Below are positions 5,156-61,766 of a stretch of 64,000 nucleotides of DNA, in pieces; the stretch's first letter is position 1, and each line of letters starts with the position of its first letter. The position numbers were made by a program, and so were the translations under genes. This DNA comes from Candidatus Shapirobacteria bacterium (GTDB lineage Bacteria; Patescibacteriota; Microgenomatia; UBA12405), in the NCBI GenBank assembly GCA_028700625.1, contig JAQVSI010000002.1:3276-67275 (forward strand), in the 5' to 3' direction. The notes under the pieces were generated by a model. That model did not search any database. It was not told where the DNA came from and worked only from the letters and a program-made list of their open reading frames with translations.

Positions 5156-5206
5156 AAGCCTCCCATTTTTCAAGGAGAGGTGCTCGAAGGACGGAGGGGT
5201 TTTAAC
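5156..5206. repeat. CCTCCC-TTGACA-GGGAGG hairpin family, copy D
   Basis: Between dnaX and ybaB. The minus strand reads TTAAAACCCC..CCTCTCCTTGAAAAATGGGAGG, followed by TATAAT. Confidence 0.5.
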
Positions 5207-6752
5207 CAAAGATTTCTTTCGCCACATCATAAATATCTCCACCACCAGATTCACTTTTATTTTCCACAAATTGATCGCTCACATTTTCCATTGGAGTATC
5301 ATTTTTAATGACTAAAGGTTCTTTTTTATTTTTTCCCAAGACACATTCAAAACACAAATCAACTCCAAAAACTTTTGTCATACAGTCTTCTACTATTTTT
5401 CTATTTTTTGCTTCTTCCAATCTGTCTTTATGAAAGGGATAAAAAACTTCTAAAAGTAAGATTTTTCCTTTAATTGAACGTGGTCTAGATGCTCTCAAAA
5501 ACGCTTCTACTGAATGATTATAAGGTTTAATTGTCGTCAATAAATTTCTCCATTTCTCCTTAACTTTTTCAACCTCAATCGAACAATTTTTCATTTGTAC
5601 GGGCGTATTACAATACGCCTCTTCAGCTAAAACCTTCACTTCTTCTGTCTTTTCATCTGAGATCTGAGATCTGAAATCTGAAATATCGGGTTTGATATCT
5701 GAGATCTGAGATCTTTTTTGTCCCACAAACTCAACAACTGCCAATTCTAATGGCAACTGATCTATTTCTACTTCTTTTTCTTGTTTAGATGCTTTAACTA
5801 ATAAGTTTATAAAAAATTCAGATTCACTCAAATTTAAACCATTCTGGTTTTCAGAACCCAAACCATAAAAAGATAAAATTTTCTTTTGAAAAAAATTCAT
5901 TAATTTTAATCTAAAACTAGAAAAATCAATTCCCTCTGTTGCCATCTTTTCTAATTTTTCCAAAATTAATTTAATTTCACCTTTATCCAAATCTTTATCG
6001 AAATCTTCTTCACTATAATTACCACTCTTATCCAAATAAAACTTAAAAACTTCCTCTGACTTTAATTTTTTTCCCAACTGCAAATATAATTCATTAAAAT
6101 TTCTCTGCAAATTTCTAAAACTACCATCACTCTTTTCTATAATAAAATCAACTGCCTCCTTAGCAATTTCAATTCCTTCTCCATCAATAATTTTTTTAAG
6201 TGAATTATTTAAAGCATCTTTTCCACCTTTTCTAAAGTCAACCCTTACTAACCTCGATAATACTGTTTCAGGGATTTTTTCGGCATCAGTAGTGCACAAA
6301 ACAAAAATTGTATGTTTAGGCGGTTCCTCAATTAACTTTAGAAGTGCATTAAAAGCATCTTTAGTTAACATATGAACTTCGTCAATAATAAAAACTTTTT
6401 TAGTTAACTTACTTGGTAATAAATAAGCTTTATCTTTTAAACTTCGAACATCTTCAATTCCTCGGTTTGATGCTCCATCCATTTCAATAACATCCATCGC
6501 TGAACCTTTTAATATTTCTTTACAATTATCACATTTTCCACAAGGCTCGCCATCTTTCAAATCATTACAATTAGTTGCTCTGGCCAAAATTCTGGCTGCT
6601 GATGTTTTTCCCGATCCCTTTGGTCCAGAAAATAAAAAAGATTGAGGTACATCTTTAGCTGATAAAAATTTCTTCAAACTAATTGCCACATCGGTCAAAT
6701 CCAAATCTGAAAACTTAATTGGTCTATATTTTAAGTGAAAAACTGACATCAA
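5202..6752 (-). CDS. dnaX: DNA polymerase III subunit tau/gamma
   Basis: Walker A GPKGSGKTS and the Zn module CGKCDNCKEI. It carries in-frame heptamer repeats at 5655-5714 and a degenerate palindromic element at 5597-5619. Confidence 0.85.
   Translation of the reverse strand: MMSVFHLKYRPIKFSDLDLTDVAISLKKFLSAKDVPQSFLFSGPKGSGKTSAARILARATNCNDLKDGEPCGKCDNCKEILKGSAMDVIEMDGASNRGIEDVRSLKDKAYLLPSKLTKKVFIIDEVHMLTKDAFNALLKLIEEPPKHTIFVLCTTDAEKIPETVLSRLVRVDFRKGGKDALNNSLKKIIDGEGIEIAKEAVDFIIEKSDGSFRNLQRNFNELYLQLGKKLKSEEVFKFYLDKSGNYSEEDFDKDLDKGEIKLILEKLEKMATEGIDFSSFRLKLMNFFQKKILSFYGLGSENQNGLNLSESEFFINLLVKASKQEKEVEIDQLPLELAVVEFVGQKRSQISDIKPDISDFRSQISDEKTEEVKVLAEEAYCNTPVQMKNCSIEVEKVKEKWRNLLTTIKPYNHSVEAFLRASRPRSIKGKILLLEVFYPFHKDRLEEAKNRKIVEDCMTKVFGVDLCFECVLGKNKKEPLVIKNDTPMENVSDQFVENKSESGGGDIYDVAKEIFG
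5597..5619. repeat. palindromic element P1, a degenerate copy inside dnaX
   Basis: GTACGGGCGTATTACAATACGCC. It encodes AYCNTPVQ in the dnaX reading frame. Confidence 0.5.
5655..5714. repeat. ATCTGAG heptamer tandem repeats, two blocks inside dnaX
   Basis: CATCTGAGATCTGAGATCTGAAATCTGAAAT ... ATATCTGAGATCTGAGATCT. Confidence 0.6.
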
Positions 6753-7161: not shown

Positions 7162-7167
7162 TTTTTT

Positions 7168-7195
7168 GTACGGGCGTATTGCAATACGCCCCTAC
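7168..7195. repeat. palindromic element P2, the intergenic copy
   Basis: GTACGGGCGTATTGCAATACGCCCCTAC, with a perfect 8-bp stem GGGCGTAT/ATACGCCC. Confidence 0.6.
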
Positions 7196-7630
7196 CTATA
7201 TATTTTCTATTTTTTCTTTTACAATTTTTGAAATTAATCCACCATCCACTGTTCCACCAGTTTTAATCATCACTTCTTTCATAACAAATCCAAAATTATT
7301 CCCCTTATCTATTATCGCTTGGTTTACAATTTCTCTAACTTTTTCTTCACTGATATCTTCTGGTAAATATTCTTTAACTACTAAAATTTCATAATCTAAT
7401 TCGTCAACTAAATCTTGCCTGCCGCCTTTTAAAAACATTTCTCTTGATTCTTCCTTATTTTTTAATTCTTTTCTCAAAACCATCATCTCCTCAGCTTCTG
7501 TCAAAGCTCCGGGTGGCAGTTGTAATTCTTTTTTATCAATCAATGAAATCAAAAATCGCAACACATCCACCCGCTTATTATCACGGTTCTTCAACGCATT
7601 AAAACTATCTTGTTTTAATTTATTTCGCAT
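7196..7630 (-). CDS. GatB/YqeY domain protein
   Basis: YqeY-like sequence. The start was moved to the internal Met (MRNKLK) to avoid overlapping rpsU. Confidence 0.6.
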   Translation of the reverse strand: MRNKLKQDSFNALKNRDNKRVDVLRFLISLIDKKELQLPPGALTEAEEMMVLRKELKNKEESREMFLKGGRQDLVDELDYEILVVKEYLPEDISEEKVREIVNQAIIDKGNNFGFVMKEVMIKTGGTVDGGLISKIVKEKIENI

Positions 7631-12060: not shown

Positions 12061-12690
12061 TTACTTAGTTAGCCTGCAACAAACTGGAGTTTTTCCAGAA
12101 CAAGTAGTTCCATTAATCACTGATCCACCCTTACCTATAGTACAAGTTCTCACATTACCAACACAAACACCACCTTTAGCAATACAACTTGGTTTTGGGG
12201 TTGGTGTTGCCTTGGCTAATTTACAACACTTAATATCATTAGCTCCATAAGTTCCTAAACATAACTTTGAATTCGATCCAATTACAGTTCCTCTAGAACC
12301 ATCAAAACTACAAGTCGAGCCATCTTTTACAGTAGTATAGTTACCCACTCGAGTACAAACCCCACCTGCATTTACACAACCCTCAGCCCCTGGTAATTTA
12401 CCAGTATCAGGCAAACAACAATAATAAGAAGTATTTTTACATAATCCTTTTACGGCCATTCCATTATATCCAGTGGATGTACTACAACTACCAGTTTGAT
12501 TATACGCATTACAAGTACCATATAATAATTTCCCCGTTAAATCCTTACTACTACAAGCCGCCACTCCTGCCGCACTACTTCTAGTATCCTGTCTATTTTG
12601 AATCACAGTTAAAAGAGCCAATCCAGCAATTGAAATAATTAACAAAATTAACAAAAGTTTTAGATTGCTTTTCTTTTTTATTTGTTTCAT
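12061..12690 (-). CDS. Cys-rich secreted protein, paralogous to modules of the 9877-12015 protein
   Basis: Signal peptide and a shared CVNAGGVC / YYCCLPDTGK motif. Confidence 0.4.
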   Translation of the reverse strand: MKQIKKKSNLKLLLILLIISIAGLALLTVIQNRQDTRSSAAGVAACSSKDLTGKLLYGTCNAYNQTGSCSTSTGYNGMAVKGLCKNTSYYCCLPDTGKLPGAEGCVNAGGVCTRVGNYTTVKDGSTCSFDGSRGTVIGSNSKLCLGTYGANDIKCCKLAKATPTPKPSCIAKGGVCVGNVRTCTIGKGGSVINGTTCSGKTPVCCRLTK

Positions 12691-12709: not shown

Positions 12710-13780
12710 TTATTTTTTCAAAACTCGACCAATGTCTCCCACTGTAATCAACACAATCAAACTTAAAAGCAAAATCATTCCAATATTGTTTACTACCATT
12801 TCTAATTTTTGATTGGCTTTTTTCTTAAAAATCATTTCATAGAAAACAAAAATTATTCGACCTCCATCCAAAGCCGGAAAAGGTAAAACATTAACTATTG
12901 CCAAATTTACAGAAACTATTCCAAAAAAATGAACAACTGCTAAAAATCCTTGATTTTTATTAATTGCACTAGTTGCTTCAAACATTCCAATTGGACCACT
13001 AACATCTTTTGGAACATTCCCAGTAAATAATCCTCCAATCATTTTAAAAACACCATTTCCAATAATTTTTCCCCAAAAATAAGCTTCTTTAAAACCAGCC
13101 CCAATTCCTTCATAAAATCGATACCAAGGCACTTTAATCATCTCTGTGTTTGAAATAGCAATTCCAATTGCCCCTTCCCCTTCTGGTGGATTTGCTCTTA
13201 CTTCCACCTCTTTTTGTACGGGCGTATCGCCATACGCCCCTACAATCTCTAATTTGATATTTTCCCCTTTATATTTCCCAACCTCTGTTGTTAGTTCATC
13301 TGGTTTTTTAATTTCTTTATCTTGTACTTTCACGATAATGTCTTCTTCTTTCAATCCTGCTTTTTCAGCTGGTGAATTTTTTGCAATTCCAATAATCTTA
13401 ACTTTGTTTGTTTCGGTCGGCACTCCTAAAATTGTATAAACCACACTAAAAATTAAAATTGCCAAGACCAAATTCATGAACACTCCACCCAACACAATTA
13501 TTAACTTTTGCCATGGCTTTTTATGATTAAAAGAATTCCCTCCCTTACCATCACCATCTTCTCCATATAATTTACAAAATCCACCAATTGGTAACCAATT
13601 TATACTATATATAGTATCCCCAATTTTTTTACCAATTATTCTTGGAGGTAAACCCAAACCAAATTCTTCAACTCTGACTCCATTTTTTCTAGCTGCAAAA
13701 AAATGACCAAGTTCATGAACTAAAACTAAAATTGATAGCGCAACTATAAAAATTATCAAATCCATTCTTGATTTTAACAA
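12710..13780 (-). CDS. rseP: RIP metalloprotease RseP (M50 site-2 protease with PDZ)
   Basis: HELGHF zinc motif, a PDZ segment, and LDGG close to the C-terminus. The palindromic element at 13216-13243 lies in frame inside it. Confidence 0.8.
   Translation of the reverse strand: MLKSRMDLIIFIVALSILVLVHELGHFFAARKNGVRVEEFGLGLPPRIIGKKIGDTIYSINWLPIGGFCKLYGEDGDGKGGNSFNHKKPWQKLIIVLGGVFMNLVLAILIFSVVYTILGVPTETNKVKIIGIAKNSPAEKAGLKEEDIIVKVQDKEIKKPDELTTEVGKYKGENIKLEIVGAYGDTPVQKEVEVRANPPEGEGAIGIAISNTEMIKVPWYRFYEGIGAGFKEAYFWGKIIGNGVFKMIGGLFTGNVPKDVSGPIGMFEATSAINKNQGFLAVVHFFGIVSVNLAIVNVLPFPALDGGRIIFVFYEMIFKKKANQKLEMVVNNIGMILLLSLIVLITVGDIGRVLKK
13216..13243. repeat. palindromic element P3, inside rseP
   Basis: GTACGGGCGTATCGCCATACGCCCCTAC. 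It encodes GAYGDTPVQ in frame. Confidence 0.6.
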
Positions 13781-13794
13781 AACAAAACTTAAAA

Positions 13795-13872
13795 TTCGAA
13801 GTTATAATTTTTTGTGTCCTTGAACGTGCGACACACATTCACCAGACATAAAAAATTTGTAACGAGAATTTT
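13795..13872. repeat. intergenic ~80-95-nt repeat, family X, copy 1
   Basis: TTCGAAGTTATAATTTTTTGTG..GAACGTGCGACACACATTCACCAGACATAAAAAATTTGTAACGAGAATTTT. Confidence 0.55.
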
Positions 13873-13881
13873 AAGTTTTGT

Positions 13882-14433
13882 TTAACCACGAATTTCCAAT
13901 TCTTTTTTCTTAGCTGTTTCTTCTAATTTTCCAATATAAAGATCTGTAGTTTTTTGTAATTCAGTTTCATCTCTTTTAAATTCATCTTCAGAAACTGATT
14001 TATCTTGTTTAGCTTTTTGCAAATCATTTCTAAAATCTGCCCTAGCATCTCTAATCATTACTCTAGCTCCCTCTAGTTTTCTACCAAGAAGTTTTACATA
14101 ATCTTCTCTTTGTTCTACTGTCAACATTGGTAAACTCATTCTAATAATAGTTCCGTCAACAGAAGGTGTCATTCCTACATTTGCCACCACAATTCCATTG
14201 CTGATTTCTCTAATTAAAGCTTGATCCCATGGTTCAAAAGTTAGACTTCGAACATCAGGAACTCCAATTGAACCTAATTCAATCAATTTCATTTTTTGGC
14301 CACCATAAACCGTCACCACCACATTTTCAATCAATCCCGGAGTTGCTCTTCCTGTTCTAATAGAGGCAATATCGTTAGTAAACAGAGCTACTATTTTATC
14401 CATTCTGTTTTTTACATCTGCAAAATTTATCAT
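13882..14433 (-). CDS. frr: ribosome recycling factor
   Basis: 183 aa matching RRF throughout. Confidence 0.9.
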   Translation of the reverse strand: MINFADVKNRMDKIVALFTNDIASIRTGRATPGLIENVVVTVYGGQKMKLIELGSIGVPDVRSLTFEPWDQALIREISNGIVVANVGMTPSVDGTIIRMSLPMLTVEQREDYVKLLGRKLEGARVMIRDARADFRNDLQKAKQDKSVSEDEFKRDETELQKTTDLYIGKLEETAKKKELEIRG

Positions 14434-14450
14434 ATGTCAAATTATACCAA

Positions 14451-14510
14451 AAAAAAGCTCCCCTTCATCAAGGGGAGCTGGCGAGTAAAACGAGTCTGAG
14501 GAGTTTAAAT
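14451..14510. repeat. hairpin family, copy B
   Basis: Between tsf and frr. The hairpin GCTCCCCTTCATCAAGGGGAGC is followed by a T-run and then TATAAT on the minus strand. Confidence 0.5.
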
Positions 14511-14963
14511 CTCAAACCTAGAAAATCTATTAATCTTCATGTTTTCACCAAATTTAACAATCAAAGCTTTAACCATTTCTTCAATAGTTTTGCTTGGATC
14601 TTTAATAAATTCTTGTTTCATCAAATCTTCAACAGTTTCTGGATTCATAGCTGCCACTTGTAAACATATTTCTTTTGTTAAGTTAATGAAATCTTCGTGT
14701 TTAGCCACAAAATCAGTTTCACATAAAAGCTCAACCATAACTCCAATTTTACCTGTGGTATGAGTATAAGTAGCAACTCGTCCTTGGTGAGTTTCTCTTT
14801 CAGCTTTAGTTTCTGCTTTTTTAAAACCTTTTTCTTTCAAAATTTGTTTGGCTTTTGTTTCATCACCATCAGCTTCTTCCAAAGCAGATTTAATTTCCAT
14901 AATTCCAAGACCCATCTCAGCTCTTAATTTTTTAACTAATTCAATTATTTTTTTATTATCCAT
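14505..14963 (-). CDS. tsf: elongation factor Ts (short form)
   Basis: UBA-like N-terminus LGIMEIKSALEEADGDETKAKQILKEKG followed by the EF-Ts core. Confidence 0.75.
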   Translation of the reverse strand: MDNKKIIELVKKLRAEMGLGIMEIKSALEEADGDETKAKQILKEKGFKKAETKAERETHQGRVATYTHTTGKIGVMVELLCETDFVAKHEDFINLTKEICLQVAAMNPETVEDLMKQEFIKDPSKTIEEMVKALIVKFGENMKINRFSRFEI

Positions 14964-14985
14964 ATTTTTAATTTTAAAAATTAAT

Positions 14986-15036
14986 GTCCTCCCTTCTTCA
15001 AGGGAGGATGTCCGTAAAACGGACAGGTGGGTTTAA
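14986..15036. repeat. hairpin family, copy C
   Basis: Between rpsB and tsf: TCCTCCCTTCTTCAAGGGAGGA plus GTCCGTAAAACGGAC. Confidence 0.5.
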
Positions 15037-15037
15037 G

Positions 15038-15967
15038 TTATTTTACTCCTGCTGCTTTAATTGCTTTACCAATTTCTTCAACAATCAAAGTCACACTTTT
15101 AACACTGTCATCATTAGCAGGGATTGCTAAATCAATTTTAAAAGGATTTGCATCACTATCAACGATTCCAGTAATTTTTACATTTTTAATTTTTGCTTCT
15201 TTAATAGCTGTTTTTTCAAAACCAGCATCAACTACAAACAAAATATCAAAAAATTTATCGACATTAACTAAACCCCCAACAATCTTTTCTAATCTAATTA
15301 TTTCTTTATTCATTTGCGATAACTCTTTTTTAGTAGAGTCAACAAACTTTCCTTTTTCAATTCCTTCTTTAAAATCAGTTAATTTTTTAATATTCTTTTT
15401 AATTTGTTCCCAATTGGTAATAGTTCCTCCTAACCATCTATCGGTAACATAAGGAACTCCAGCTTCTATGGCCACTCTTCGGACAACTTCTCTAGCTTGT
15501 CTTTTAGTACCCACTAAAACTATTTGTTTACCATTTCTTTTAGCGTTATAAATGAAATTACAAGCTTTTTCTAAAGCTTCAAGAGTTTTAACCAAGTCAA
15601 AAACTTGAACTCCGTCTTTTTGAGTATAAATATTTTCTAATGATTTTGGATGAGTTTTAGAAATTTTGTGTCCTAAATGACTTCCAGCATTCAATAAATC
15701 CTTAAGTCCAACAGTTAAACTATATTTCTTGTCTTCTTTTACAGCTTCCTTTTTTTCTACTTCCACATCTTTTAAAGCTTCCGTAGCTTTAGCAAAGGAA
15801 GCTTTTTGAGCAGCAACTTTCTCGTTCATCTTTTTGATGTTTTCAGAAGTAATATTGCTTTGAGTTTTGCTTTTAACAACCAATGCTTTTTTAACCATAG
15901 ATTTTCCGCTACGATTGACGGTTTTTACGATCACTTTATTTTTTTCTGTCATTTTGTTTTTACCCAT
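15038..15967 (-). CDS. rpsB: 30S ribosomal protein S2 with a Lys-rich N-terminal extension
   Basis: S2 core begins at LLNAGSHLGH after about 85 Lys-rich residues. Confidence 0.85.
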   Translation of the reverse strand: MGKNKMTEKNKVIVKTVNRSGKSMVKKALVVKSKTQSNITSENIKKMNEKVAAQKASFAKATEALKDVEVEKKEAVKEDKKYSLTVGLKDLLNAGSHLGHKISKTHPKSLENIYTQKDGVQVFDLVKTLEALEKACNFIYNAKRNGKQIVLVGTKRQAREVVRRVAIEAGVPYVTDRWLGGTITNWEQIKKNIKKLTDFKEGIEKGKFVDSTKKELSQMNKEIIRLEKIVGGLVNVDKFFDILFVVDAGFEKTAIKEAKIKNVKITGIVDSDANPFKIDLAIPANDDSVKSVTLIVEEIGKAIKAAGVK

Positions 15968-16085
15968 CCGTAGCTTTTAGCGAAGGAGGGTCCTCCTTAC
16001 TTATATTTTTAACACCGGGTTTTTACCCCAGGATTCTTGTGTTAAAAATTTAAAAATTATTAACTTGGAAATTATATCATATATA

Positions 16086-16638
16086 AACAAAGTCAGAGAG
16101 CGGAAAGGAAACCCCGAAGGGAAAAGAGAAAGCACCTAAGTGCTTCTCTTTTTTTGGAAAAAATTAAACATTTTCGGCAAATACCATCGGATACCCATTG
16201 GCACCAACCACAGGAAACACAAAGAATTGAATCTTTCCGTAAAAACAAAACTAAAAAAACCAATCATAGTTAAATTTAATTCAACAAATTGAACCATAAA
16301 CCTAACCATTTTCTTGTTATTTTTCATCATTTCTTTAGTTAAAAGAACCATTTGGACAATATTTACCAAAAAAACAAAAAAAAACATAAATTTAACAGTA
16401 GATAGAATACCTAAAGGACGAGATACAATTAAAAAAAACAAAGAAGCCATAAATGCAAACAATTTGATTAAATCAATCAACAAGATATCACTCATTTTTC
16501 TTTTCATTTTGATTTCCTTTCTATTCCCAAGTATTTAGTTTGATAAAAACATTTTTTATCCACCATTCACAATCAAACACGTTAATTAATCTTAAAATTT
16601 TCCTCATATTCTTCCTCCTCATTCTCTCTGACTTTGTT
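16086..16638. mobile_element. MITE-like element bounded by perfect 15-bp terminal inverted repeats
   Basis: AACAAAGTCAGAGAG at 16086-16100 and its exact reverse complement CTCTCTGACTTTGTT at 16624-16638. The flanks are TA-rich and there is no transposase gene inside. Confidence 0.35.
16136..16507 (-). CDS. small hydrophobic protein (3 predicted TM) carried inside the inverted-repeat element
   Basis: 123-aa ORF lying entirely between the two inverted repeats. Confidence 0.3.
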   Translation of the reverse strand: MKRKMSDILLIDLIKLFAFMASLFFLIVSRPLGILSTVKFMFFFVFLVNIVQMVLLTKEMMKNNKKMVRFMVQFVELNLTMIGFFSFVFTERFNSLCFLWLVPMGIRWYLPKMFNFFQKKRST

Positions 16639-16831
16639 AAAGAACATGTACCCGTAGGCACTTCGGCTATATATAAAAGGTATAAATACCATTAAAAAAT
16701 AGTTAGACTAGTCACAGCGATATTGCCATGTTAGTGCTGACATCATACCACTTTTATGTACTTTTGTCAATATTATAAGATAAATTTTACCCTCTCCTTC
16801 ATTTTAGTTAAAATATTGTTAAAATAATCTT

Positions 16832-18997
16832 ATGTCTGATACTGCCAATCTCTCGATATTTGAAGTCCGTTTACCCCAAAACAACGAACATACTTTTGAG
16901 TCAATGTCTGCCCTGCTTTCAAATTTTACCCAATTTTCAAGTCTTTCTTTCTTTGAAAAATTAATTGGCAAGAAAAAAACCATTGTTTCTCTAGAAATAG
17001 TTTTAAAAGAAGGTCAAATTCATTTCTATATTGCTGCTCTTTCCAACAATAGCGAATTTCTCCGTTCTCAAATCTTAGCTCAATATTCCACCGCCATTTT
17101 AAGAGACACAAAAGATTTCCTTCTCAATCTTGATCCAGAATTACCAATCACTTATACTCAACTTGGTTTAGCTAGATCCTACGATTATCCAGTCAAAACT
17201 GCTAAAGATTTCAAAGACACCGACCCTTTAACCTCTGTTCTCGCTCCCCTTTCTAGATCTAATAACATTAAAGATTTTTTTATGTTCCAAATTCTTCTAA
17301 GTGGAGCTCCAAAAAATTGGCAGAGTAATATAATTGGTACTATTCAAAACGGAATTTTGGTAGACCAAGAAAGAAACCTTCGCACTGCCCATCCCGATAA
17401 AGCTATTTTGGAACAAAAAATTCAATTTCCAGGTCTTTATACTCAAATGAATCTTCTTACCAACAACCCTGCTCTAATGGTTTCCGTTTCTTCCTCTTTT
17501 GGTGCCTACACTAATCCTCGTGGTAATTTTATTAAAAGCTTCACTCCAGGGTTTTTTACAAAAAAGAAACTTAAAGAATCAATTTACCTTCGTAAATTTA
17601 ATCCAAAATTAAAAAGTCAAATTTTTAACACCGAAGAATTAGCTGCCATTTGGCATTTTCCAAATCTAAACACTAAACTTCCCAACATTGCTTGGGGTAA
17701 AAAACTCTATTCTGACCCCCCTGAAAATCTTCCAATTGCTGACGATTTAACTGCAGAAGAAAAAAACAAAATCACCTTTTTTGCCAAAACTGAATATCGC
17801 AACAAAGATTCGATTTTTGGCATCAAAGAAGGCGAAGATCGCCGTCGCCACACCTATATTATCGGTAAATCTGGTACTGGTAAAACTACTCTTATCGCCA
17901 ATATGGCCATCGATGATATTCGTAAAGGTCGCGGTGTAGCTGTTATCGATCCTCATGGTGATTTATGCAATAACATTCTTGACTATATTCCTAGTAATCG
18001 TGTTAATGATTGTTGTTATTTCAACCCCGCCGATCCAGATTATGTCTATCCTCTAAACGTTTTAGAAACCAAAAATGAATCCCAAAAAGAGCTGATTGCT
18101 TCTGGTGTTCTCTCTATTTTTAAAAAGCTTTATGGAAATATTTCTTGGGGTCCTCGTCTTGAACATATTTTAAGAAATACTGTTTTAACTTTAGTCAACA
18201 CTCCAGGAAGCGATCTTACTCACATTGTCGAAATTTTAACCAATAAAAACTACCGAGAAAAAGTTGTTTCTAAATTAACCAATCAAACTTTAATTAATTT
18301 TTGGCAAAATGAATTTAGTAGAATGGATCCAAAATTTCAAAATGAAGCTGTTTCTCCTATTTTAAACAAAGTTGGCCAATTCATTTCTTCAACCAATATC
18401 AGAAATACTGTTGCTCATGCCAAATCAAAAATAAATATCCAAGAAATTATGGACCAAAAGAAAATTTTAATTGCCGATCTTTCGACTGGTCGTCTTGGTG
18501 AAGATAATTCTGCTCTTTTAGGTGCCATGTTAATTACTCAAATTCAACTTTCAGCCATGAATCGTGTTTTTCAAACCAGCGATGAACGTTCCGATTTTTA
18601 TCTCTATGTCGATGAATTCCAAAACTTTGCCACTGAGGCTTTTATTAAAATTCTTTCAGAAGCCCGTAAATTTAAATTAAATCTTATTGTTGCCAATCAA
18701 TACATGTCCCAATTGGACAAACCAATTCAAGATGCTATTCTAGGCAACATTGGTTCAATTATGTCTTTTGTGGTCGGTAATCAAGATGCTTTTATCCTTG
18801 CCAAAGAATTTGGACCTCAATTCCCACCAGAAGATTTAATCAAAATTGGTAAATATCAGATAGTCTGTAAACTTTCTATCGATTCTGAAACAACTCAACC
18901 TTTCTATGCCACCACCCTAGCTCCACTTTCTTGTAAAAATCAACAACGCGACAAATTAATCCACACCTCTCAAGAACGCTGGGGTAAAAAGAAGTAA
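16832..18997 (+). CDS. TraD/VirD4-like P-loop ATPase (T4SS coupling-protein or DUF87-like) with a ~330-aa N-terminal domain of unknown function
   Basis: Walker A IIGKSGTGKTTLIAN, Walker B LYVDEFQNF, and a C-terminal TraG-D-like region. There are no N-terminal TM helices. Confidence 0.5.
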   Translation: MSDTANLSIFEVRLPQNNEHTFESMSALLSNFTQFSSLSFFEKLIGKKKTIVSLEIVLKEGQIHFYIAALSNNSEFLRSQILAQYSTAILRDTKDFLLNLDPELPITYTQLGLARSYDYPVKTAKDFKDTDPLTSVLAPLSRSNNIKDFFMFQILLSGAPKNWQSNIIGTIQNGILVDQERNLRTAHPDKAILEQKIQFPGLYTQMNLLTNNPALMVSVSSSFGAYTNPRGNFIKSFTPGFFTKKKLKESIYLRKFNPKLKSQIFNTEELAAIWHFPNLNTKLPNIAWGKKLYSDPPENLPIADDLTAEEKNKITFFAKTEYRNKDSIFGIKEGEDRRRHTYIIGKSGTGKTTLIANMAIDDIRKGRGVAVIDPHGDLCNNILDYIPSNRVNDCCYFNPADPDYVYPLNVLETKNESQKELIASGVLSIFKKLYGNISWGPRLEHILRNTVLTLVNTPGSDLTHIVEILTNKNYREKVVSKLTNQTLINFWQNEFSRMDPKFQNEAVSPILNKVGQFISSTNIRNTVAHAKSKINIQEIMDQKKILIADLSTGRLGEDNSALLGAMLITQIQLSAMNRVFQTSDERSDFYLYVDEFQNFATEAFIKILSEARKFKLNLIVANQYMSQLDKPIQDAILGNIGSIMSFVVGNQDAFILAKEFGPQFPPEDLIKIGKYQIVCKLSIDSETTQPFYATTLAPLSCKNQQRDKLIHTSQERWGKKK

Positions 18998-18998
18998 A

Positions 18999-20996
18999 CT
19001 ACGGTTTTTTCCACCCTGCCCACTTACAGATTGGATATTTTGAACAACCAAAAAATTTTCTACCAGTCTTGGTTTTTCTTACCACTCCTTCAGCCCCACA
19101 TTCTGGACAATTGAATCCTGCTGCTTCTTGAAATTGTTTTGTATATTTACAATCTGGGAATCGACTACAAGAAATAAATTTACCAAATTTACCCAATCTA
19201 ACAACCAAATCACCTTCCTTGCATTCTGGACATTTTTCTCCAGTCCTTTCAACTTCAACTTTTACTCTTTCACTATTTCCTTCGGCTAATTTCAATTCTT
19301 TTTCAAATTTTTTCCAAAATTCTTTCATCATTTCCTTCCAATCTGTCTTCCCTAAGGAAACTTTATCTAAATCCTCTTCCATTTCTGCTGTAAAAGGTAA
19401 AGATAAAACATTGGCAAAGTTTTTTACCAAAAATTCATTAGTTGCTTGTCCTAAAACTGTTGGTTTAAATCTTCCTTCCTCTCTGTCAATATATTGTCTT
19501 AATAAAATAGTTGAAATAATTGGAGCATAAGTACTAGGTCTACCAATTCCTTGTTTTTCTAAACTAGACACTAAACTAGCATCACTATAACGAGGCATTG
19601 GATTAGTTTCCGACTCTAATAACCAATTTTTTTTACCATCAATTTTTTCATTTTCCTTAAGTTCTGGCAACACTTGATCTTCATGTTTATCGCCAGTAAT
19701 TTTCAAAAATCCATCGAATAACATTCTTACTCCTTTTGATTCAAAAGTACCGTTTCTATTGGCAAATAATATTGTTGTATTTTTCATTATTGCCGATGCT
19801 GCTTGAGTTGCTACTGCCCTTTTCCAAATCATTTCATACAATTTACTCTCTCTCAAATCACTTTCATCAACAAAATTTTTTGAAACATTTGTTGGTCTAA
19901 TTGCCTCATGTGCTTCTTGAGCATTTTTGGCAGTATTTTTATAAAATCTAACTTTTTCCACCACGTAATTTTGGCCAAATTTTTCTCCAATATATTTTCT
20001 AAAATCAGCAATAGATTTTTCTGACAAATAAACCGAATCCGTTCTGTGATAAGTGATTAAACCTTTTTCGTACAATTTTTGAGCAATACTCATTGTTTGT
20101 TTACCTGACCATCCCATTTTTCGAGAAGCGGCTTGTTGCAATTTTGAAGTAGTAAAAGCTGGTAATGGTAATCTGTGGAGTTCTTTTTCTATAATTTTAG
20201 TTATTAAAAACTCTTTCTCCATCTGATTAATATAACTTTCCGCATCATTTTTATCTTTAAAAATCGAAGTAGTAAAAGAATATTCCCCATCAAATAATTT
20301 TATTTTTTCTGTTTTATAGATATTTTTATCATCTATTTTGATCAATTCAGCCTTAAATTTTTTTCCATCCTTTTTTAATTCACTATAAACAGAAAAATAT
20401 TTTTCTTTCAAAAAAGCCAAGATCTCTTTTTCTCTTTCACAAATAAGTCTCACTGCCACCGATTGCACTCTTCCAGCCGACAGTCCTCTTCTAACTTTTT
20501 TCCATAAAATCGGAGACAAGCTATAACCCACTACTCTGTCCAAAACTCTTCTGCCTTGTTGAGCATTAACTAAAGCCATATCTATATCTCTAGATTGTTT
20601 TAAAGCCTCTTCGATGGCTTCTTTAGTAATTTCATGAAAAGTAACTCTGGTAATATTTTTTTTATCAATCAAACCTTTAACTTTCGATTCCAATATCCAC
20701 TTAACATGCCAAGAAATAGCCTCTCCTTCACGATCAGGATCGGACGCTAATAATATTTGTTTTGCTGATTTTGCTTCTTTAACCAATTCATCTACAACAT
20801 TCTTTTTCTTAATATCAATCACATATTCCACTTCAAAATTTTTGAAATCAATCGCCATCTTATTTGATGGCAAATCTCGAATATGTCCAACTGTTGCTAA
20901 AACTTTATAATCTCCACCTAAATATTTTCCGATGGTTCTGGCTTTTGTTGGTGACTCCACAATTAATAGTTTCTTCATTTTATCTTTCATTGTCAT
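18999..20996 (-). CDS. topA: DNA topoisomerase I
   Basis: Toprim N-terminus, the active-site Tyr region, and C-terminal C4 zinc ribbons. Confidence 0.9.
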   Translation of the reverse strand: MTMKDKMKKLLIVESPTKARTIGKYLGGDYKVLATVGHIRDLPSNKMAIDFKNFEVEYVIDIKKKNVVDELVKEAKSAKQILLASDPDREGEAISWHVKWILESKVKGLIDKKNITRVTFHEITKEAIEEALKQSRDIDMALVNAQQGRRVLDRVVGYSLSPILWKKVRRGLSAGRVQSVAVRLICEREKEILAFLKEKYFSVYSELKKDGKKFKAELIKIDDKNIYKTEKIKLFDGEYSFTTSIFKDKNDAESYINQMEKEFLITKIIEKELHRLPLPAFTTSKLQQAASRKMGWSGKQTMSIAQKLYEKGLITYHRTDSVYLSEKSIADFRKYIGEKFGQNYVVEKVRFYKNTAKNAQEAHEAIRPTNVSKNFVDESDLRESKLYEMIWKRAVATQAASAIMKNTTILFANRNGTFESKGVRMLFDGFLKITGDKHEDQVLPELKENEKIDGKKNWLLESETNPMPRYSDASLVSSLEKQGIGRPSTYAPIISTILLRQYIDREEGRFKPTVLGQATNEFLVKNFANVLSLPFTAEMEEDLDKVSLGKTDWKEMMKEFWKKFEKELKLAEGNSERVKVEVERTGEKCPECKEGDLVVRLGKFGKFISCSRFPDCKYTKQFQEAAGFNCPECGAEGVVRKTKTGRKFFGCSKYPICKWAGWKKP

Positions 20997-24132: not shown

Positions 24133-26136
24133 ATGAAGTCTTTTATTAAGTCTGTTCGTTTTCTGTTTTTGACCCTCTTTTTTGTCACTCCTTTAATTTT
24201 TACCCAGTCCAATTCCGAGCTTTTCGAATTACCAAAAATGTATTTTGTATATCTTTTAACCATTTTAATAACTACTTTTCATCTAGTTAATGTCTTTAAA
24301 AAACAAGCTCCTCTATTTAAAAAAACTTTTCTAGACATCCCTTTGCTTTTATTTCTAATTTCTCAAATAATTTCCACTATTTATTCAATCGATCCTCATA
24401 CTTCCTTTTTTGGTTATTACTCCAGACTTAATGGCGGTCTTTTATCGTTAATCTGTTATGCCCTTTTGTACTGGATTCTTTCGATTTACATCAATTCTAA
24501 TTTCAAAAAACAAATCATTAATTTTTCATTACTTTCCGGTTTTTTAATTTCTATTTATGCTATTGCCCAGCATTTTGGTATCGATAAAAATTTATGGGTT
24601 CAAGACGTTCAATCTCGAGTTTTTTCCACCCTCGGCCAACCAAATTGGCTCGCCGCCTATCTTTGTATCCTACTTCCATTTTCTATTTACAAATTTTTTC
24701 AATCAATCAATACGTACGGGCGTATTGCCATACGCCCCTATCTTTATTTATTTTTAACATTAATTTTTTATATTTCTATTCTTTTCACCAAATCCAAATC
24801 TGGTATCATTGCCTGCCTCATTTCCCTTTTTGTATACTTCACCTTCTCTTTCTTAAAAAACAAAAATTCTCGAAAATTGTTAATTCTTAATTATTCATTA
24901 TTAATTATTCTTTCGCTTTTAATCGCTAATCCAATCAAAGATCAACTTTTCCCTCCTAAATTGGAAATTGGAAATTCGACATTAGAAATTAATAACAAAT
25001 TAAACATTACCCCCTCAGGTGATATCCGAAAAATTGTTTGGACTGGCGCCGTTGATCTTTGGAAAAAATTTCCTATTTTTGGCACTGGTGTTGAAACTTT
25101 TGCGTATTCCTATTATTGGACTCGTCCTGTTAAACATAATTTAACCTCTGAATGGGATTTTCTCTACAACAAAGCCCATAACGAATATATTAATTATCTA
25201 GCCACCACCGGTGCCATCGGTCTAATCACTTATTCAATTTTAATATTTACTTTTCTTTTTTCTTTAATCAAAAATTTAATTAGAAATTGGAAATTAGAAA
25301 TTGAAAATTTATCTCTAGTTATTTTAACTTCATATATTTCTATTCTCATTACCAATGCCGCCGGCTTCTCTGTAGTTTCCACTTCACTTTTCTTCTTCCT
25401 CCTCCCCGCTCTTTTAATTCCCGATCAAAATACTAAAGTAGAGACGTTGCATGCAACGTCTCTACACAAATTCTTAATTATTCCTCTAATTTTAATTAGT
25501 TTTATCTTCACTAAAAGAATAATCTTCTTTTATCTAGCCGACATTGCCTACAGCCAAGCCGAAACTTATGATTCTAGAAATAATTATAAAACTGCTCTTT
25601 CTTATCTTCAAATAAGTCATCAGTTCAACCCCAAAGAACCCTTATATACTGACAAACTAGCTACTATTTACTCAAAAATTGCTTTAAATAGTGAAAAACA
25701 AGAAGATATCGACAAATCTATAAATTATTCTAATCTAACTATTAAAATTTCTCCTAGTAATATTAATTTTTGGAAAGAACGAGCTCAAGTTTATCTTTAT
25801 CTTTCAGGAGTTGATTCAAAATATTTTTCCGAAGCCATTATTTCTCTCGATAAAGCTAGTCTTTTAGCCCCAACCGACGCCAAAATTTATTATTCAATTG
25901 GTCAATTCCTAGAAACTGCCAGTCTTCAAAAAGAAGCTATTCCTTATTATCAAAAAGCCATTGAATTAAAACCAAATTACGATTATGCCTATTTTGCTCT
26001 GGGCAAAATTTATTTATCTCAAAAAGAAAATATATTAGCTAAAAAAAATCTACAAAAAGCCGTTGATTATTCTTATCCCACCAACTCCGAAGCCGAAAGA
26101 CTACTTAAAACCATTTTCCCTGCCACCTCTTTATAA
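24133..26136 (+). CDS. O-antigen ligase / Wzy-like polytopic membrane protein with C-terminal TPR repeats
   Basis: About 12 TM helices followed by TPR repeats (AYFALGKIYL). It contains the palindromic element at 24714-24741 and heptamer repeats at 24958-24990 and 25279-25310. Confidence 0.5.
   Translation: MKSFIKSVRFLFLTLFFVTPLIFTQSNSELFELPKMYFVYLLTILITTFHLVNVFKKQAPLFKKTFLDIPLLLFLISQIISTIYSIDPHTSFFGYYSRLNGGLLSLICYALLYWILSIYINSNFKKQIINFSLLSGFLISIYAIAQHFGIDKNLWVQDVQSRVFSTLGQPNWLAAYLCILLPFSIYKFFQSINTYGRIAIRPYLYLFLTLIFYISILFTKSKSGIIACLISLFVYFTFSFLKNKNSRKLLILNYSLLIILSLLIANPIKDQLFPPKLEIGNSTLEINNKLNITPSGDIRKIVWTGAVDLWKKFPIFGTGVETFAYSYYWTRPVKHNLTSEWDFLYNKAHNEYINYLATTGAIGLITYSILIFTFLFSLIKNLIRNWKLEIENLSLVILTSYISILITNAAGFSVVSTSLFFFLLPALLIPDQNTKVETLHATSLHKFLIIPLILISFIFTKRIIFFYLADIAYSQAETYDSRNNYKTALSYLQISHQFNPKEPLYTDKLATIYSKIALNSEKQEDIDKSINYSNLTIKISPSNINFWKERAQVYLYLSGVDSKYFSEAIISLDKASLLAPTDAKIYYSIGQFLETASLQKEAIPYYQKAIELKPNYDYAYFALGKIYLSQKENILAKKNLQKAVDYSYPTNSEAERLLKTIFPATSL
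24714..24741. repeat. palindromic element P4, inside the O-antigen-ligase-like gene
   Basis: GTACGGGCGTATTGCCATACGCCCCTAT. It encodes TYGRIAIRPY in frame. Confidence 0.6.
24958..24990. repeat. TTGGAAA heptamer repeats
   Basis: AAATTGGAAATTGGAAATTCGACATTAGAAATT. Confidence 0.45.
25279..25310. repeat. TTGGAAA / TTAGAAA heptamer repeats
   Basis: TTAGAAATTGGAAATTAGAAATTGAAAATTT. Confidence 0.45.
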
Positions 26137-30486: not shown

Positions 30487-30559
30487 GCCCAGATAGCTCA
30501 GTTGGTAGAGCATCCCCTTGGTAAGGGGAAGGTCTTGGATTCGAGTTCCAATCTGGGCT
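30487..30559 (+). tRNA. tRNA-Thr (anticodon GGU)
   Basis: Acceptor GCCCAGA/TCTGGGC and anticodon loop TTGGTAA. Confidence 0.8.
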
Positions 30560-30593
30560 CAAAGGAGGGCATGCCCTCCGAAGCTTTAGCGAA

Positions 30594-33343: not shown

Positions 33344-33754
33344 TTACTTAATTTGGCTTAAATCACCATTAATTATAATTGGACAAAAACCACCTATCTC
33401 ATCTTTTAAAATGCCTTCAGGAATCTGATTATATAAAAATATTTTTTTATTTAATCTAAAAGCATCATACATTTCCAAAAAAGTCGCTCCGCCAATATAA
33501 TTTTTGTAATCATCTTTATCAAAGTTTAAAACCAAAACCGCATCATTTTTACTAACAGAATCAACACTTTTTCTAAGCATTGTTGCTTTCCATTCAGCTC
33601 TTTCTTTTTCTCCTAAAGAACGAAAACTATCCTCAATATCAGTTTTGGGATATGTATTAGGAAAAGTTAATTTATGACCTAATTTTTCCAATTCTTTTTG
33701 AATAGGTGGAATCAAAGGATAAAATCTCTTACTACAAATTATAAAGATTTTCAT
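33344..33754 (-). CDS. hypothetical protein, possibly nucleoside 2-deoxyribosyltransferase-like
   Basis: Starts MKIFIICSKRF. The longer N-terminal extension in the ORF track overlaps tRNA-Ala and was discarded. Confidence 0.35.
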   Translation of the reverse strand: MKIFIICSKRFYPLIPPIQKELEKLGHKLTFPNTYPKTDIEDSFRSLGEKERAEWKATMLRKSVDSVSKNDAVLVLNFDKDDYKNYIGGATFLEMYDAFRLNKKIFLYNQIPEGILKDEIGGFCPIIINGDLSQIK

Positions 33755-33756
33755 AG

Positions 33757-33829
33757 TGGACCCAAGGGGACTCGAACCCCTGACCTTCCCCATGCCATGG
33801 GGACGCGCTACCAACGACGCTATGGGCCC
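33757..33829 (-). tRNA. tRNA-Ala (anticodon GGC)
   Basis: Acceptor GGGCCCA/TGGGTCC with the G3:U70 Ala identity pair, and anticodon loop ATGGCAT. Confidence 0.7.
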
Positions 33830-33880
33830 TTCAATGTTTCTTATTTTATCAAATTTTCTTTTGTGTTAACATTAGCTCGT

Positions 33881-34773: not shown

Positions 34774-34852
34774 TCGAAATCACAATTTTTTGCAATATCG
34801 AACGTGCTACGCACATTCGCCAATTGTAAAAATTTCCGTGATGAGAATTTTT
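34774..34852. repeat. family X, copy 2, lying between the two galU paralogs
   Basis: Same architecture, with compensatory changes in the central hairpin. Confidence 0.55.
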
Positions 34853-35749: not shown

Positions 35750-35750
35750 C

Positions 35751-35793
35751 TAAAACCCTCCGCCCTTCGGGCACCTCCCTTGACAGGGCGGCT
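35751..35793. repeat. hairpin family, copy F
   Basis: TAAAACCCTCCGCCCTTCGGGCACCTCCCTTGACAGGGCGGCT, immediately after the stop of the second galU paralog. Confidence 0.55.
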
Positions 35794-35907
35794 TACATAT
35801 TAAAAACATATTTTTATATAAAATATTTCTCCCTATAGTTAATTTATTATTGATACTTAGTTTTAAAAACAGCCTTGTTTGTGCCTATTTTTTACTAAAC
35901 TTACTTA

Positions 35908-36088: not shown

Positions 36089-36107
36089 TGATCACAAATC
36101 CCTCTAA

Positions 36108-36184
36108 ATCTCCCTTTGACCTAAAGGGAGACTTTATTTTTATAACCCCTCCTTTAAGTCAAAGGAGGGGTAGGGGTGGATTTT
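36108..36184. repeat. dual-hairpin repeat, family Y, copy 1
   Basis: TCTCCCTTTGACCTAAAGGGAGA ... CCCCTCCTTTAAGTCAAAGGAGGGG TAGGGGTGGATTTT. Confidence 0.5.
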
Positions 36185-36510
36185 ATATCCTATAACCTTG
36201 ACAAATAAGCACTTTTGCAGTACAATACATTCACAATAATCTTTATGATTATTATGGCGTTTAGTGAAAGCAGGCATTTGCGCTTACTTTCCCAAAACAC
36301 CGTTCTTTAAAAAATAGTTGTTATTTGGAAAGTCTATAAATTTTCTTTATATATCTTGTAATATGTACCATCTTGGGCTCAACTCTTGAACCTAAAATGG
36401 TACATATTAGTAAAAACAAGAGAAATAAGTGGCATTAAAACCGCTTTTTATAATATATAGAAGCATGGGAAACCAAAAGGTAGGCCCGCTTCGGAAAGGA
36501 GAAAACATGA

Positions 36511-49235: not shown

Positions 49236-49703
49236 TTATTTAATCATAAGGTCGACCACTACATTTTTTAAAACCCTCCGCCCTGCGGGCACCTCCCTTG
49301 ACAGGGCGGCTTTTCTTTCTTGAATAACTTTTAATATTTCGTCTTTAACTGTTTCTAAATTATTTAATACTTCTTCATTTTTAAATCTTATTGTTTTTAT
49401 ATTTAGACAATTTAAAAACTTATCTCTTTCTTTATCGTAACTTTGTTTTTTAAGATGATAAACACCATCAATCTCTATACATAATAATAATTTAGAACAA
49501 TAAAAATCAAGAATAAATCTATGTAATGGTTTTTGTCTGGTAAATTTATAGCCTGATGGTTTATTTTTTAAAAACTCATACCAAATTTTTGATTCAGCTT
49601 TAGTTGGATTTTTTCTATTAAATTTAGCCGGATATTTTAATTGCTCTAAATACTTCAAATTGCCTTTTTGAGTCATTATTTCTATACATGTAATATTTTT
49701 CAC
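49236..49703 (-). CDS. DUF559 (Vsr-like endonuclease domain) protein whose C-terminus is extended through a repeat element
   Basis: FTRQKPLHRFILDFYCSKLLLCIEIDG. It has a GTG start, and the last 14 or so codons are encoded by repeat copy G (49269-49311). Confidence 0.5.
   Translation of the reverse strand: MKNITCIEIMTQKGNLKYLEQLKYPAKFNRKNPTKAESKIWYEFLKNKPSGYKFTRQKPLHRFILDFYCSKLLLCIEIDGVYHLKKQSYDKERDKFLNCLNIKTIRFKNEEVLNNLETVKDEILKVIQERKAALSREVPAGRRVLKNVVVDLMIK
49269..49311. repeat. hairpin family, copy G
   Basis: About 93% identical to copy F. It lies inside the 3' end of the DUF559 ORF. Confidence 0.55.
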
Positions 49704-49722
49704 ATAATAATTATTTCATTTA

Positions 49723-49775
49723 TAGCCTCCCTGTCAAGGGAGGTGGCGAGTGAAACGAGACGAAGGGTTTTAAAA
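49723..49775. repeat. hairpin family, copy A
   Basis: CCTCCCTGTCAAGGGAGG plus GGCGAGTGAAACGAG, in the divergent promoter region of DUF559 and secE. Confidence 0.5.
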
Positions 49776-51014: not shown

Positions 51015-51020
51015 AATAAA

Positions 51021-51060
51021 TTGCCCTGTCAAGGGAAATGTCACAAAGTGACAAAGGGTT
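51021..51060. repeat. hairpin family, a distant copy in the rplA leader
   Basis: TTGCCCTGTCAAGGGAAA plus GTCACAAAGTGAC. Confidence 0.35.
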
Positions 51061-51094
51061 TATTCCTTTAAAATTATTAATTAAAAAACCAAAT

Positions 51095-61568: not shown

Positions 61569-61603
61569 AAACAATTCTATCAAATCTCTCTCGGCTTCGC
61601 CGT

Positions 61604-61689
61604 TTCTCCCTTTGACTAAAGGGAGACTCAATTAAAAATTGATAAAATTTTCCCCTCCTTTCGTCAAAGGAGGGGTTGGGGTGGATTTT
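61604..61689. repeat. family Y, copy 2
   Basis: Same two hairpins and the same GGGGTGGATTTT tail. It overlaps the spurious N-terminal extension of the dehydrogenase ORF. Confidence 0.5.
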
Positions 61690-61766
61690 GATTATTGACA
61701 CATTAATATGCAATATGTTTTACTGATATTAATTAATCATTATTGTGATATAAGAGGAGCCAATCA

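Follow-up and report, generated by a model that had tools for sequence, protein, structure and literature searches.

Three-block hairpins of a Candidatus Shapirobacteria genome as a probable BoxC/PIT/TM-class DNA repeat, with a DUF559 nuclease as candidate partner

We analysed a stretch of 64,000 nucleotides (the window) from the genome of a Candidatus Shapirobacteria bacterium (GenBank assembly GCA_028700625.1, contig JAQVSI010000002.1, positions 3,276 to 67,275), a member of the candidate phyla radiation (CPR). The C/G-rich hairpins that recur in it are probably a dispersed DNA repeat of the BoxC/PIT/TM class (potential intrastrand triplex), with a DUF559 nuclease as a candidate partner of the kind that RAYT, the REP-associated tyrosine transposase, is for repetitive extragenic palindromic (REP) sequences. 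The element type itself is not new, since this is a CPR variant of the BoxC/PIT/TM repeats. What is new is a second loop that bears a hairpin of its own, the in-frame colonisation of essential genes and a near-universal coupling to DUF559 genes, which is seemingly unreported.

An eleven-copy repeat family in a Shapirobacteria genome

The first-pass annotation of this DNA had listed seven copies of a REP-like hairpin, here called A to G, and all seven were found at the places it gave, with the shared layout present on the strand that starts TTAAAACCC. A covariance model, R1, was seeded with eight copies, all from other genomes, and was run unfiltered over the whole window. The listed copies scored 60.1 bits (C, E-value 2e-17), 33.7 (A), 28.3 (B), 25.8 (D), 25.4 (E), 16.8 (F) and 11.1 (G, E-value 0.1); copy G was retained despite its 11.1 bits because its three blocks co-vary. 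R1 added four copies to these, which form two back-to-back inverted pairs at 36094-36134(+)/36144-36186(-) and 61580-61629(+)/61650-61691(-), so that the family numbers eleven in 64 kb, spread over 57 kb. Rather than being confined to one region, the copies lie across the window, between 5 kb and 62 kb, and R1 finds 172 matches in 85 sources elsewhere, with up to nine copies in 8 kb. A strict 22-base pattern likewise occurs in at least 118 stretches of a species-representative genome collection, and the family is in this sense a genuine dispersed, REP-like one. The annotation was also right that two copies are nearly identical (43 of 45 bases), although these are the copies at 35750-35794 and 49268-49312 and not those at 49723 and 51021 that it had paired.

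In a genome of 32% G+C (31.9% in the window) any stable hairpin is C/G-rich, and the copies might on that ground be unrelated terminator hairpins of an A+T-rich genome that resemble one another by chance or convergence. That reading is refuted, and we give it practically no credence. The core CCTCCCTTGANNGGG, with up to two mismatches, has 6 matches in the window against 0.36 expected, a number that none of 100 shuffles reached; the E-values descend to 2e-17 with a seed free of window sequence; the unpaired head and the loop sequences are common to the copies; and more than 100 loci elsewhere have an identical architecture. Rfam scans, by gathering score and by E-value, gave no family at any of the copies. 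Several candidates were discarded along the way: the core match at 55209-55223 is an unrelated hairpin and not a family member, and 12355-12397 and 1204-1249 are unrelated hairpins or chance matches.

Three blocks and two hairpins

Read along its G-rich strand, the element consists of a pyrimidine block (CCTCCC…), a loop of 4-8 nt, the Watson-Crick partner of the first block (GGGAGG…), a second loop and a mirror purine block, this third block being GGAGGG or GGTGGG followed by TTT. The second loop measures 2-19 nt and is, in this lineage, often expanded (12-30 nt) by an extra, fast-changing hairpin. On the opposite strand the parts appear as an unpaired head, (T)TAAAACCC(T/A)CC, a first hairpin, a linker of 1-3 nt and a second hairpin, CCTCCC(TT)-loop-(AA)GGGAGG. 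The sequence of the first hairpin varies between subfamilies and its pairing is nearly always kept; the head, TTAAAACCC(T/A)CC, is the complement of the third (mirror) block.

This layout is matched by the way in which the blocks change. In 11 of the 11 window copies, the divergent copy G included, the triads follow the purine-motif rule, in which G faces G-C and either A or T faces A-T, with 0-1 mismatch. Among 145 distinct copies, head and pyrimidine arm are mirror-compatible at 91.7% of positions, compared with 79.9 +/- 0.9% when heads and arms are swapped between copies (0 of 2000 shuffles equal the observed value), a result that is strong without being a probability, the kinship of the copies being ignored by the shuffle. 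The states of this mirror co-variation are C/C and T/T, and the T/A alternation of the head falls exactly opposite an A-T pair. Both helices co-vary in the same 145 copies as well, with 91.6% of cells paired against 79.1% after shuffling and 51-70% in slid controls, and with changes on both sides in 13 of 14 helix pairs. Moreover, a generic, model-free finder of three blocks (7-nt blocks, at most one mismatch) recovers window copies B, C, D, E, F, H, I, J and K; its hits at 30513-30572, in a tRNA, and 46233-46271, in coding sequence, are chance matches.

Probable kinship with BoxC, PIT and TM_ECO

BoxC of E. coli was re-described as PIT and then as TM_ECO (Holder et al. 2015, PMC4666352, which cites Hoyne/Maher 2000 as earlier work). 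The TM_ECO pattern, 5'-CCCTCNCCC N3-6 GGGNGAGGG N3 GGGNGAGGG, occurs 23 times in MG1655 and 3610 times across 262 proteobacterial genomes, in both orientations, and the five inverted pairs of MG1655 always join a TTA-loop type to a CCG-loop type (PMC4666352). As a single strand the E. coli sequence forms a stable triplex in vitro, no tie of the motifs to mobile elements was found, and they are associated with local genome instability (PMC4666352).

The exact TM_ECO consensus has 0 matches in the window, whose family is therefore a variant and not TM_ECO itself. Short relatives in other genomes read GGGAGGGG-TTA-GGGGAGGG, and thus form a bridge between the window family and the TM_ECO form. Matches to the strict TM_ECO pattern were found at E. 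coli ycjD and at the loci L103, L173 and L196.

DUF559 genes lie beside the repeat

Between window copies E and F, whose heads point outward, lies a gene for a DUF559 (PF04480) Vsr-fold endonuclease (49236..49703, minus strand; conserved domain 49311-49676). The protein matches PF04480 with an E-value of 1.9e-29 (102.1 bits against a cut-off of 20.6), its residues E68, D70, H74, D81 and R84 are invariant among eight DUF559 sequences, and its closest solved structure is PDB 3HRL, an 'endonuclease-like protein' (3.9e-19). Since it scores 61 bits against the NCBIfam YcjD equivalog (PRK09767/YcjD), below the cut-off of 218, the gene is YcjD-like and not a YcjD orthologue. The first-pass annotation had envisaged a RAYT-like transposase as partner; a Pfam scan of the open reading frames (ORFs) beside the copies, and of those only, found none, and the gene that sits between inverted copies is the DUF559 gene.

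At loci that had been selected for the element, all eight DUF559 genes abut a copy, and four of them are bracketed by copies with heads outward. An unbiased set was obtained by fetching 80 metagenomic loci through a DUF559 peptide motif alone, with 1.5 kb flanks (29-62% G+C). R1 matched within 200 nt of the gene at 47 of the 80, with a density of 2.46 per kb near the gene and 0.042 per kb farther away, and its commonest layout was '+' upstream and '-' downstream. With the generic finder a motif lay within 200 nt of the gene at 76 of the 80 loci, and on both sides at 49, the densities being 6.43 per kb near the gene, 0.21 distally and 0.01 in shuffled sequence. The strict TM_ECO pattern itself adjoins two metagenomic DUF559 genes. 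At locus L119, a DUF559 unit encodes a protein 79% identical to that of the window and lies in unrelated flanks; its two end types are those of the window unit, a non-hairpin spacer upstream and a hairpin downstream. Taken together, these data show that co-location of repeat and DUF559 gene is near-universal for this DUF559 subfamily, from CPR to E. coli ycjD. In our literature search, which subscription-only papers lay outside, no paper ties DUF559 or ycjD to repeats.

The ycjD locus of E. coli

The exact TM_ECO pattern occurs 168 nt past the stop codon of E. coli ycjD (b1289, DUF559), and a degenerate inverted TM_ECO copy overlaps that stop codon. Given 23 copies in 4.6 Mb, TM_ECO is unlikely to lie beside ycjD by chance. 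BoxC was reportedly first noticed beside envM (fabI), the neighbour gene of ycjD. At the same locus in E. coli K-12 (NC_000913.3, 1351205-1351425) there is also, downstream of the gene, a partial duplicate of the ycjD 3' end, in which GAATATTCTCCAGCACCGTCTCC occurs twice; it sits between the perfect TM_ECO/BoxC copy and the degenerate inverted copy, and looks like a rearrangement scar at the element.

Of 5426 complete E. coli genomes, 3378 carry the gene, as a single copy. In the strain counts that follow, the assignment to phylogroups is ours. TM_ECO copies number 18-30 in MG1655, HS, BL21, 55989, IAI1, SE11, W and similar strains (A, B1, C), 6-15 in 042, UMN026, IAI39, SMS-3-5, O157:H7 and similar strains (D, E, F) and 1-2 in CFT073, UTI89, IHE3034, S88 and similar strains (B2) (counts from Holder Table S1, PMC4666352). 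Phylogroups A, B1 and C, plus ST69 and ST182, carry ycjD, and the other groups carry eefRABCD at that place (2026 paper, PMC12817139). Repeat number in E. coli tracks ycjD, with phylogeny as a confounder.

Spread and turnover in other genomes

Among the matches listed, the pattern falls mostly in Candidatus Shapirobacteria, Parcubacteria, Microgenomates, Peribacteria and Saccharibacteria, with further matches in Melainabacteria/Gastranaerophilales, some Bacteroidota, Oligoflexia and G+C-rich Proteobacteria. Several loci labelled 'uncultured Gammaproteobacteria' (L002, L010, L021, L027, L038, L067, L083 and others) have 30-36% G+C and carry genes and elements near-identical to those of Shapirobacteria; L067 resembles L040, for example, and the TsaD of L083 is 75% identical to that of L007. 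In light of a gene identity to Shapirobacteria of at least 75%, these labels are probably wrong. We found no description of such repeats in CPR in the literature searched, subscription-only papers lying outside the search.

Copies multiply within genomes as subfamilies, and come and go at orthologous sites. Within any one genome the copies share the same first hairpin, which fits subfamily-wise spread. Locus L044 is syntenic with window positions 13244-20372, at roughly 80-90% amino-acid identity, and here the spacers can be compared one by one. Between rpsB and tsf, where the window has copy C, L044 has an unrelated palindrome. Between tsf and frr, L044 has the orthologue of the window's copy B together with an inverted partner, and between frr and rseP it has a whole DUF559 unit, the window having a different repeat there. 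The same turnover was seen inside genes. In a RimK-like gene the element is missing from one genome and two others have different variants at the same place, and the first insert of TsaD is missing from one genome, is a long variant in one and another short variant in one. Contigs that encode an identical RRF protein had the same arrangement, with no strain polymorphism seen among them.

The copies of the window

Three copies lie on the minus strand among housekeeping genes at the left of the window. Copy A (5156..5205) follows dnaX, has weak hairpins and shows one triad mismatch. Copy B (14454..14509), between tsf and frr, has a degenerate first hairpin (CTCGTTTTACTCGCC) of the same subtype as copy F, and a terminator-like second hairpin with a 10-bp stem followed by T8. 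Copy C (14984..15037), between rpsB and tsf, is the best-formed, with two perfect hairpins, 9 perfect triads and a z of -5.8. The first-pass annotation had placed four upstream stop codons inside the head. Those of dnaX (5202-5204, in the head TTAAAACCCC) and tsf (14505-14507) do lie there, whereas those of rpsB (15038-15040) and of a galU-like gene (35747-35749) stand just 5' of it.

Directly 3' of the latter stop codon stands copy D (35750..35794, plus strand), the near-identical partner of copy E; an alternative fold arises from its 3' arm GGGCGG, for which the 5' CCGCCC is the better pairing partner. The gene that copy D follows is the second of two tandem galU-like NTP-transferase paralogues (33698-34765 and 34874-35749), which have 74-86% DNA identity over most of their length at a 987-nt offset. 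Copies H and I make up the first of the back-to-back pairs. H (36094..36134, plus) is the left half, a short variant without the extra hairpin (15.2 bits, 9 perfect triads), and I (36144..36186, minus) is the right half (31.0 bits, 10 perfect triads), whose G-rich strand reads CCCCTCCTTT-AAGTC-AAAGGAGGGG-TA-GGGGTGGATTT. In the second pair, copy J (61580..61629, plus, 21.7 bits) is the left half, with a short first hairpin, and copy K (61650..61691, minus, 38.2 bits) the right half, of the same subtype as copy I. Each pair joins a TCTCCCTTT-type half to a CCCCTCCTTT-type half, and copies E and F likewise differ in type.

Copies E and F are the ends of the DUF559 unit. Copy E (49268..49312, plus) lies on the downstream side of the gene and encodes part of the C-terminal tail of its protein (…ALSREVPAGRRV…), and copy F (49722..49773, minus), on the upstream side, has the non-hairpin spacer GTCTCGTTTCACTCGCC, an end type that recurs in L119. 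Finally, copy G (51016..51064, minus), between rplK and rplA, is diverged in sequence and is a probable family member, its blocks co-varying as TTTCCC / GGGAAA / AAAGGG.

Position relative to genes

The first-pass annotation had taken the family for a terminator-plus-promoter module acting through RNA, in which the hairpin and a T-run end one transcript, a TTGACA loop and a TATAAT box restart the next gene, and the whole is copied between spacers. A good deal of what it saw is real. Copies do stand right behind stop codons, and for about 20 of them, counted across genomes, the ORF upstream is co-oriented and its stop codon shares the head's first bases. Copy B is a textbook terminator. A T-rich tail follows the second hairpin in 41% of copies against a background of 17%, and in the window a T-run is clear only after B, with weaker ones after A and E. 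Genuine -10 boxes follow A and B, and a TTGACA-16/17-AATAAT arrangement, read from the sequence, precedes the DUF559 gene in the window and in L119.

As a general account, however, this reading fails, because the copies stand in both orientations, occur in-frame within genes and show no -10 enrichment, and because the box of frr is independent of them. Between co-directional genes, 20 of 34 spacer copies have the orientation of the genes and 14 the opposite one. In-frame copies were found inside the Pfam domains of TsaD (two inserts), RimK-type ATP-grasp proteins, the CCA-adding enzyme and an FkbM methyltransferase, and also inside those of MiaB-like radical SAM enzymes from two phyla, in both orientations. 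At 16-18 nt from the TTGA loop, -10-like hexamers were present in 9 of 154 cases, as at other spacings; and L044 has kept the extended -10 box of frr, which lies there outside the elements. A terminator, besides, needs no conserved mirror third block. Purine-motif triplexes do not form in RNA, and earlier assays of PIT elements gave neither promoter nor terminator activity (PMC4666352). We consider the RNA module improbable, and single copies such as B, with its 10-bp stem and T8, probably terminate transcription as a by-product. A Shine-Dalgarno or anti-Shine-Dalgarno mimic for the next gene (CACCTCC...GGGAGG) was rejected as well, GGGAGG lying 22-40 nt from the next start codon.

The positions show instead where copies are tolerated: behind stop codons, to which they sometimes donate the TAA, in spacers either way round, and in-frame in essential proteins, probably in surface loops. 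Two MiaB-like genes, one in a CPR-like metagenome-assembled genome (MAG; L115, 4052-5272) and one in a Melainabacteria MAG (L075, 5458-6894), hold two in-frame elements each, and in both genes one element follows the motif GQNV(N/D)SYG, in opposite orientation. The site could be either an insertion hot spot or an unusually insert-tolerant loop.

A possible mechanism and its rivals

For a mechanism, we propose that the folded element, on DNA that is transiently single-stranded, would be recognised and nicked by the DUF559 nuclease, and that nicking might drive the copying or maintenance of the repeats, as RAYT does for REP/REPIN; effects on transcription, such as termination at copy B, would then be by-products. 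We infer this mobilising role by the logic of RAYT and REP/REPIN, because one resident gene lies between inverted copies and many repeats lie elsewhere. Since a purine-motif triplex does not form in RNA (PMC4666352), the conserved mirror block points to a role at the level of DNA, on single strands. In its full extent the proposal makes DUF559 (YcjD-like) the missing partner of the BoxC/PIT/TM repeats, one system from E. coli to CPR that would drive copying, including the in-frame colonisation of essential genes in reduced genomes. We offer it tentatively, as a possibility and not as the expected outcome.

Its main rival on mechanism is that DUF559 is a free-standing homing endonuclease, which happens to land midway between the halves of an inverted pair or takes the arms as repair homology, the repeats spreading by other means, be it replication slippage, gene conversion or a different enzyme. 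Homing endonucleases of the Vsr-fold EDxHD kind are known, I-Bth0305I among them; the empty pairs at 36094-36186 and 61580-61691 share with the DUF559-filled pairs both the heads-outward geometry and the two differentiated halves; and DUF559 units are present or absent between close relatives. We nevertheless think homing unlikely. An actively homing gene would not be expected as one gene to many repeats, as in the fragments seen, or with most inverted pairs empty, and in 3378 E. coli genomes DUF559 occupies one fixed locus, in a single copy. Nor would the repeat numbers of E. coli be expected to track the presence of a passenger gene, as they do with ycjD. Less likely again is an immobile structural DNA element that benefits the host, such as a sink for supercoiling or a site where replication or recombination pauses, which selection would maintain, with DUF559 as a repair nuclease that processes structures. 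The structure-preserving co-variation of the three blocks and the extra hairpin would suit such a role, as would orthologous copies kept with changed sequence and the link of TM_ECO loci to local genome instability (PMC4666352). A role of this kind sits badly with near-identical copies in unrelated contexts of one genome, copy numbers that differ strongly between close strains, insertions inside essential proteins and unrelated palindromes at the same site in sister genomes, and we regard it as very doubtful.

Several points weigh against the partner proposal itself, or against its breadth. We know of no DUF559 protein that cuts these repeats, and the mobilising role is a pure inference from co-location. 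Direct evidence of transposition was not found, and neither was a target-site duplication or a clean empty site, TTAA-like flanks being indistinguishable from the A/T-rich third block. Besides the kinship that the mirror-block shuffle ignores, the mirror block might serve another purpose, the outer blocks of an inverted pair being also Watson-Crick complementary to each other. Holder et al. detected no triplex in double-stranded DNA or in vivo (PMC4666352). Common descent of the window family with BoxC is likely, not proven. The correlation of ycjD with repeat number is confounded by phylogeny, and strains of D, E and F hold 6-15 copies mostly without ycjD. The taxonomic breadth, taken from record titles, is somewhat overstated. 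The enrichment of T-rich tails (41% against 17%) leaves room for some host use in termination.

To our knowledge, no enzyme, mobility mechanism or function has been assigned to BoxC/PIT/TM repeats, known in E. coli since the 1990s, and DUF559 is, as far as we know, a very large family of small nucleases without an assigned function. The near-constant adjacency of the two hints at the enzyme behind a 30-year-old orphan repeat. If true, the partner proposal would give a function to a very large DUF family and account for repeats that have stood as orphans since the early 1990s, and the old question becomes directly testable in E. coli, through ycjD and the 23 TM_ECO copies. The repeat class also reaches into the candidate phyla radiation, in an expanded form with a hairpin in the second loop. 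For annotators, the repeats account for odd G/P/S/L-rich tails and inserts in predicted CPR proteins.

Other features of the window

Two other repeat families occur in the window. One, GTAC-GGGCGTAT-TGCA-ATACGCCC-CTAC, is present at 5596-5626, 7167-7196, 13215-13244 and 24713-24742, three of the four copies lying within long ORFs (dnaX at 5202-6752, 12710-13780 and 24133-26136). Its reverse complement begins with GTAG and resembles GTAG-tagged REPs, and a relative in L040 lies in-frame in the RimK-like gene, exactly where L082 has a triplex-type element. The other is a 19-bp palindrome, GAACGTGCGaCGCACaTTC, followed by CCAGACAT, which is intergenic at 13822-13857, 34800-34835 and 40976-41011; its first copy is the centre of a 39-nt inverted repeat (13780-13883), and it might serve a regulator as binding site or be one more mobile palindrome. 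Two RNA features scored above their Rfam gathering scores, an AdoCbl-II riboswitch (45656-45731, minus strand, 44.6 bits) beside a cluster that ends with nrdR (48651-49100), and an L10 leader (57901-58019, plus strand, 52 bits).

Comparison with known systems

Copy B has the G+C-rich stem with a T-run behind it that marks intrinsic terminators, and A and E have it weakly; unlike such terminators, most copies have no proper T-run, their orientation is not tied to transcription, and the head and mirror block are unneeded for termination. Co-oriented copies one gene apart, in L083 and L040, had suggested integron attC sites, which were rejected, as R'/R'' core sites are absent and the genes ahead of the copies are housekeeping ones.

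The Rickettsia palindromic elements (RPEs) ascribed to Ogata et al. 2000 are small palindromes that reportedly lie in-frame in essential genes and add short surface peptides. The window family is like them in persisting in-frame within essential protein-coding genes, but its sequence is unrelated, and RPEs measure 100-150 bp and have neither the three-block layout nor an associated nuclease gene. MITEs (miniature inverted-repeat transposable elements) such as Correia/NEMIS (review PMC10969869) offer a further parallel in their inverted-pair form, terminal inverted arms, intergenic positions near gene ends and occasional effects on transcription. In contrast to MITEs, the present family showed no target-site duplication in its A+T-rich flanks, a parent insertion sequence bearing a recognised transposase was not found, and single half-elements are its commonest form.

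Another parallel is REP/REPIN with RAYT (IS200-like Y1; PMC3116915, PMC3337134, PMC3733652). Both systems comprise short structured repeats with a conserved unpaired tag beside a palindrome, occur as singlets and inverted doublets in many copies and genome-specific subfamilies, and have a single resident, usually single-copy, enzyme gene between inverted copies. The window family differs in its head, (T)TAAAACCC(T/A)CC in place of a GTAG or CGTC tag, and in its third, mirror block, and the bracketed gene encodes a PD-(D/E)xK Vsr-fold nuclease and not a tyrosine HUH transposase, no transposition chemistry being known for DUF559.

The likely relatives of the family are BoxC/PIT/TM_ECO. Compared with TM_ECO, the blocks of the window family are shorter (6-10 nt) and read CCTCCC/GGGAGG in place of CCCTCNCCC/GGGNGAGGG, the second loop often has its own co-varying hairpin, and A/T triads (TTT/AAA) extend the motif. 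The host is a CPR bacterium of 32% G+C, whereas TM_ECO belongs to E. coli and other Proteobacteria; copies lie in-frame in genes, whereas TM_ECO is reported as always intergenic (PMC4666352); and the link to DUF559 is absent from the TM_ECO paper (PMC4666352). What the two have in common is the order of the blocks on one strand (pyrimidine, purine, mirror purine), triads of the G.G-C and A/T.A-T kinds, a second loop that reads TTA in the short variants, and dozens of dispersed copies in both orientations, with frequent two-subtype inverted pairs and no transposase known. Finally, a BoxC copy stands beside E. coli ycjD, just as the window copies stand beside their DUF559 gene.

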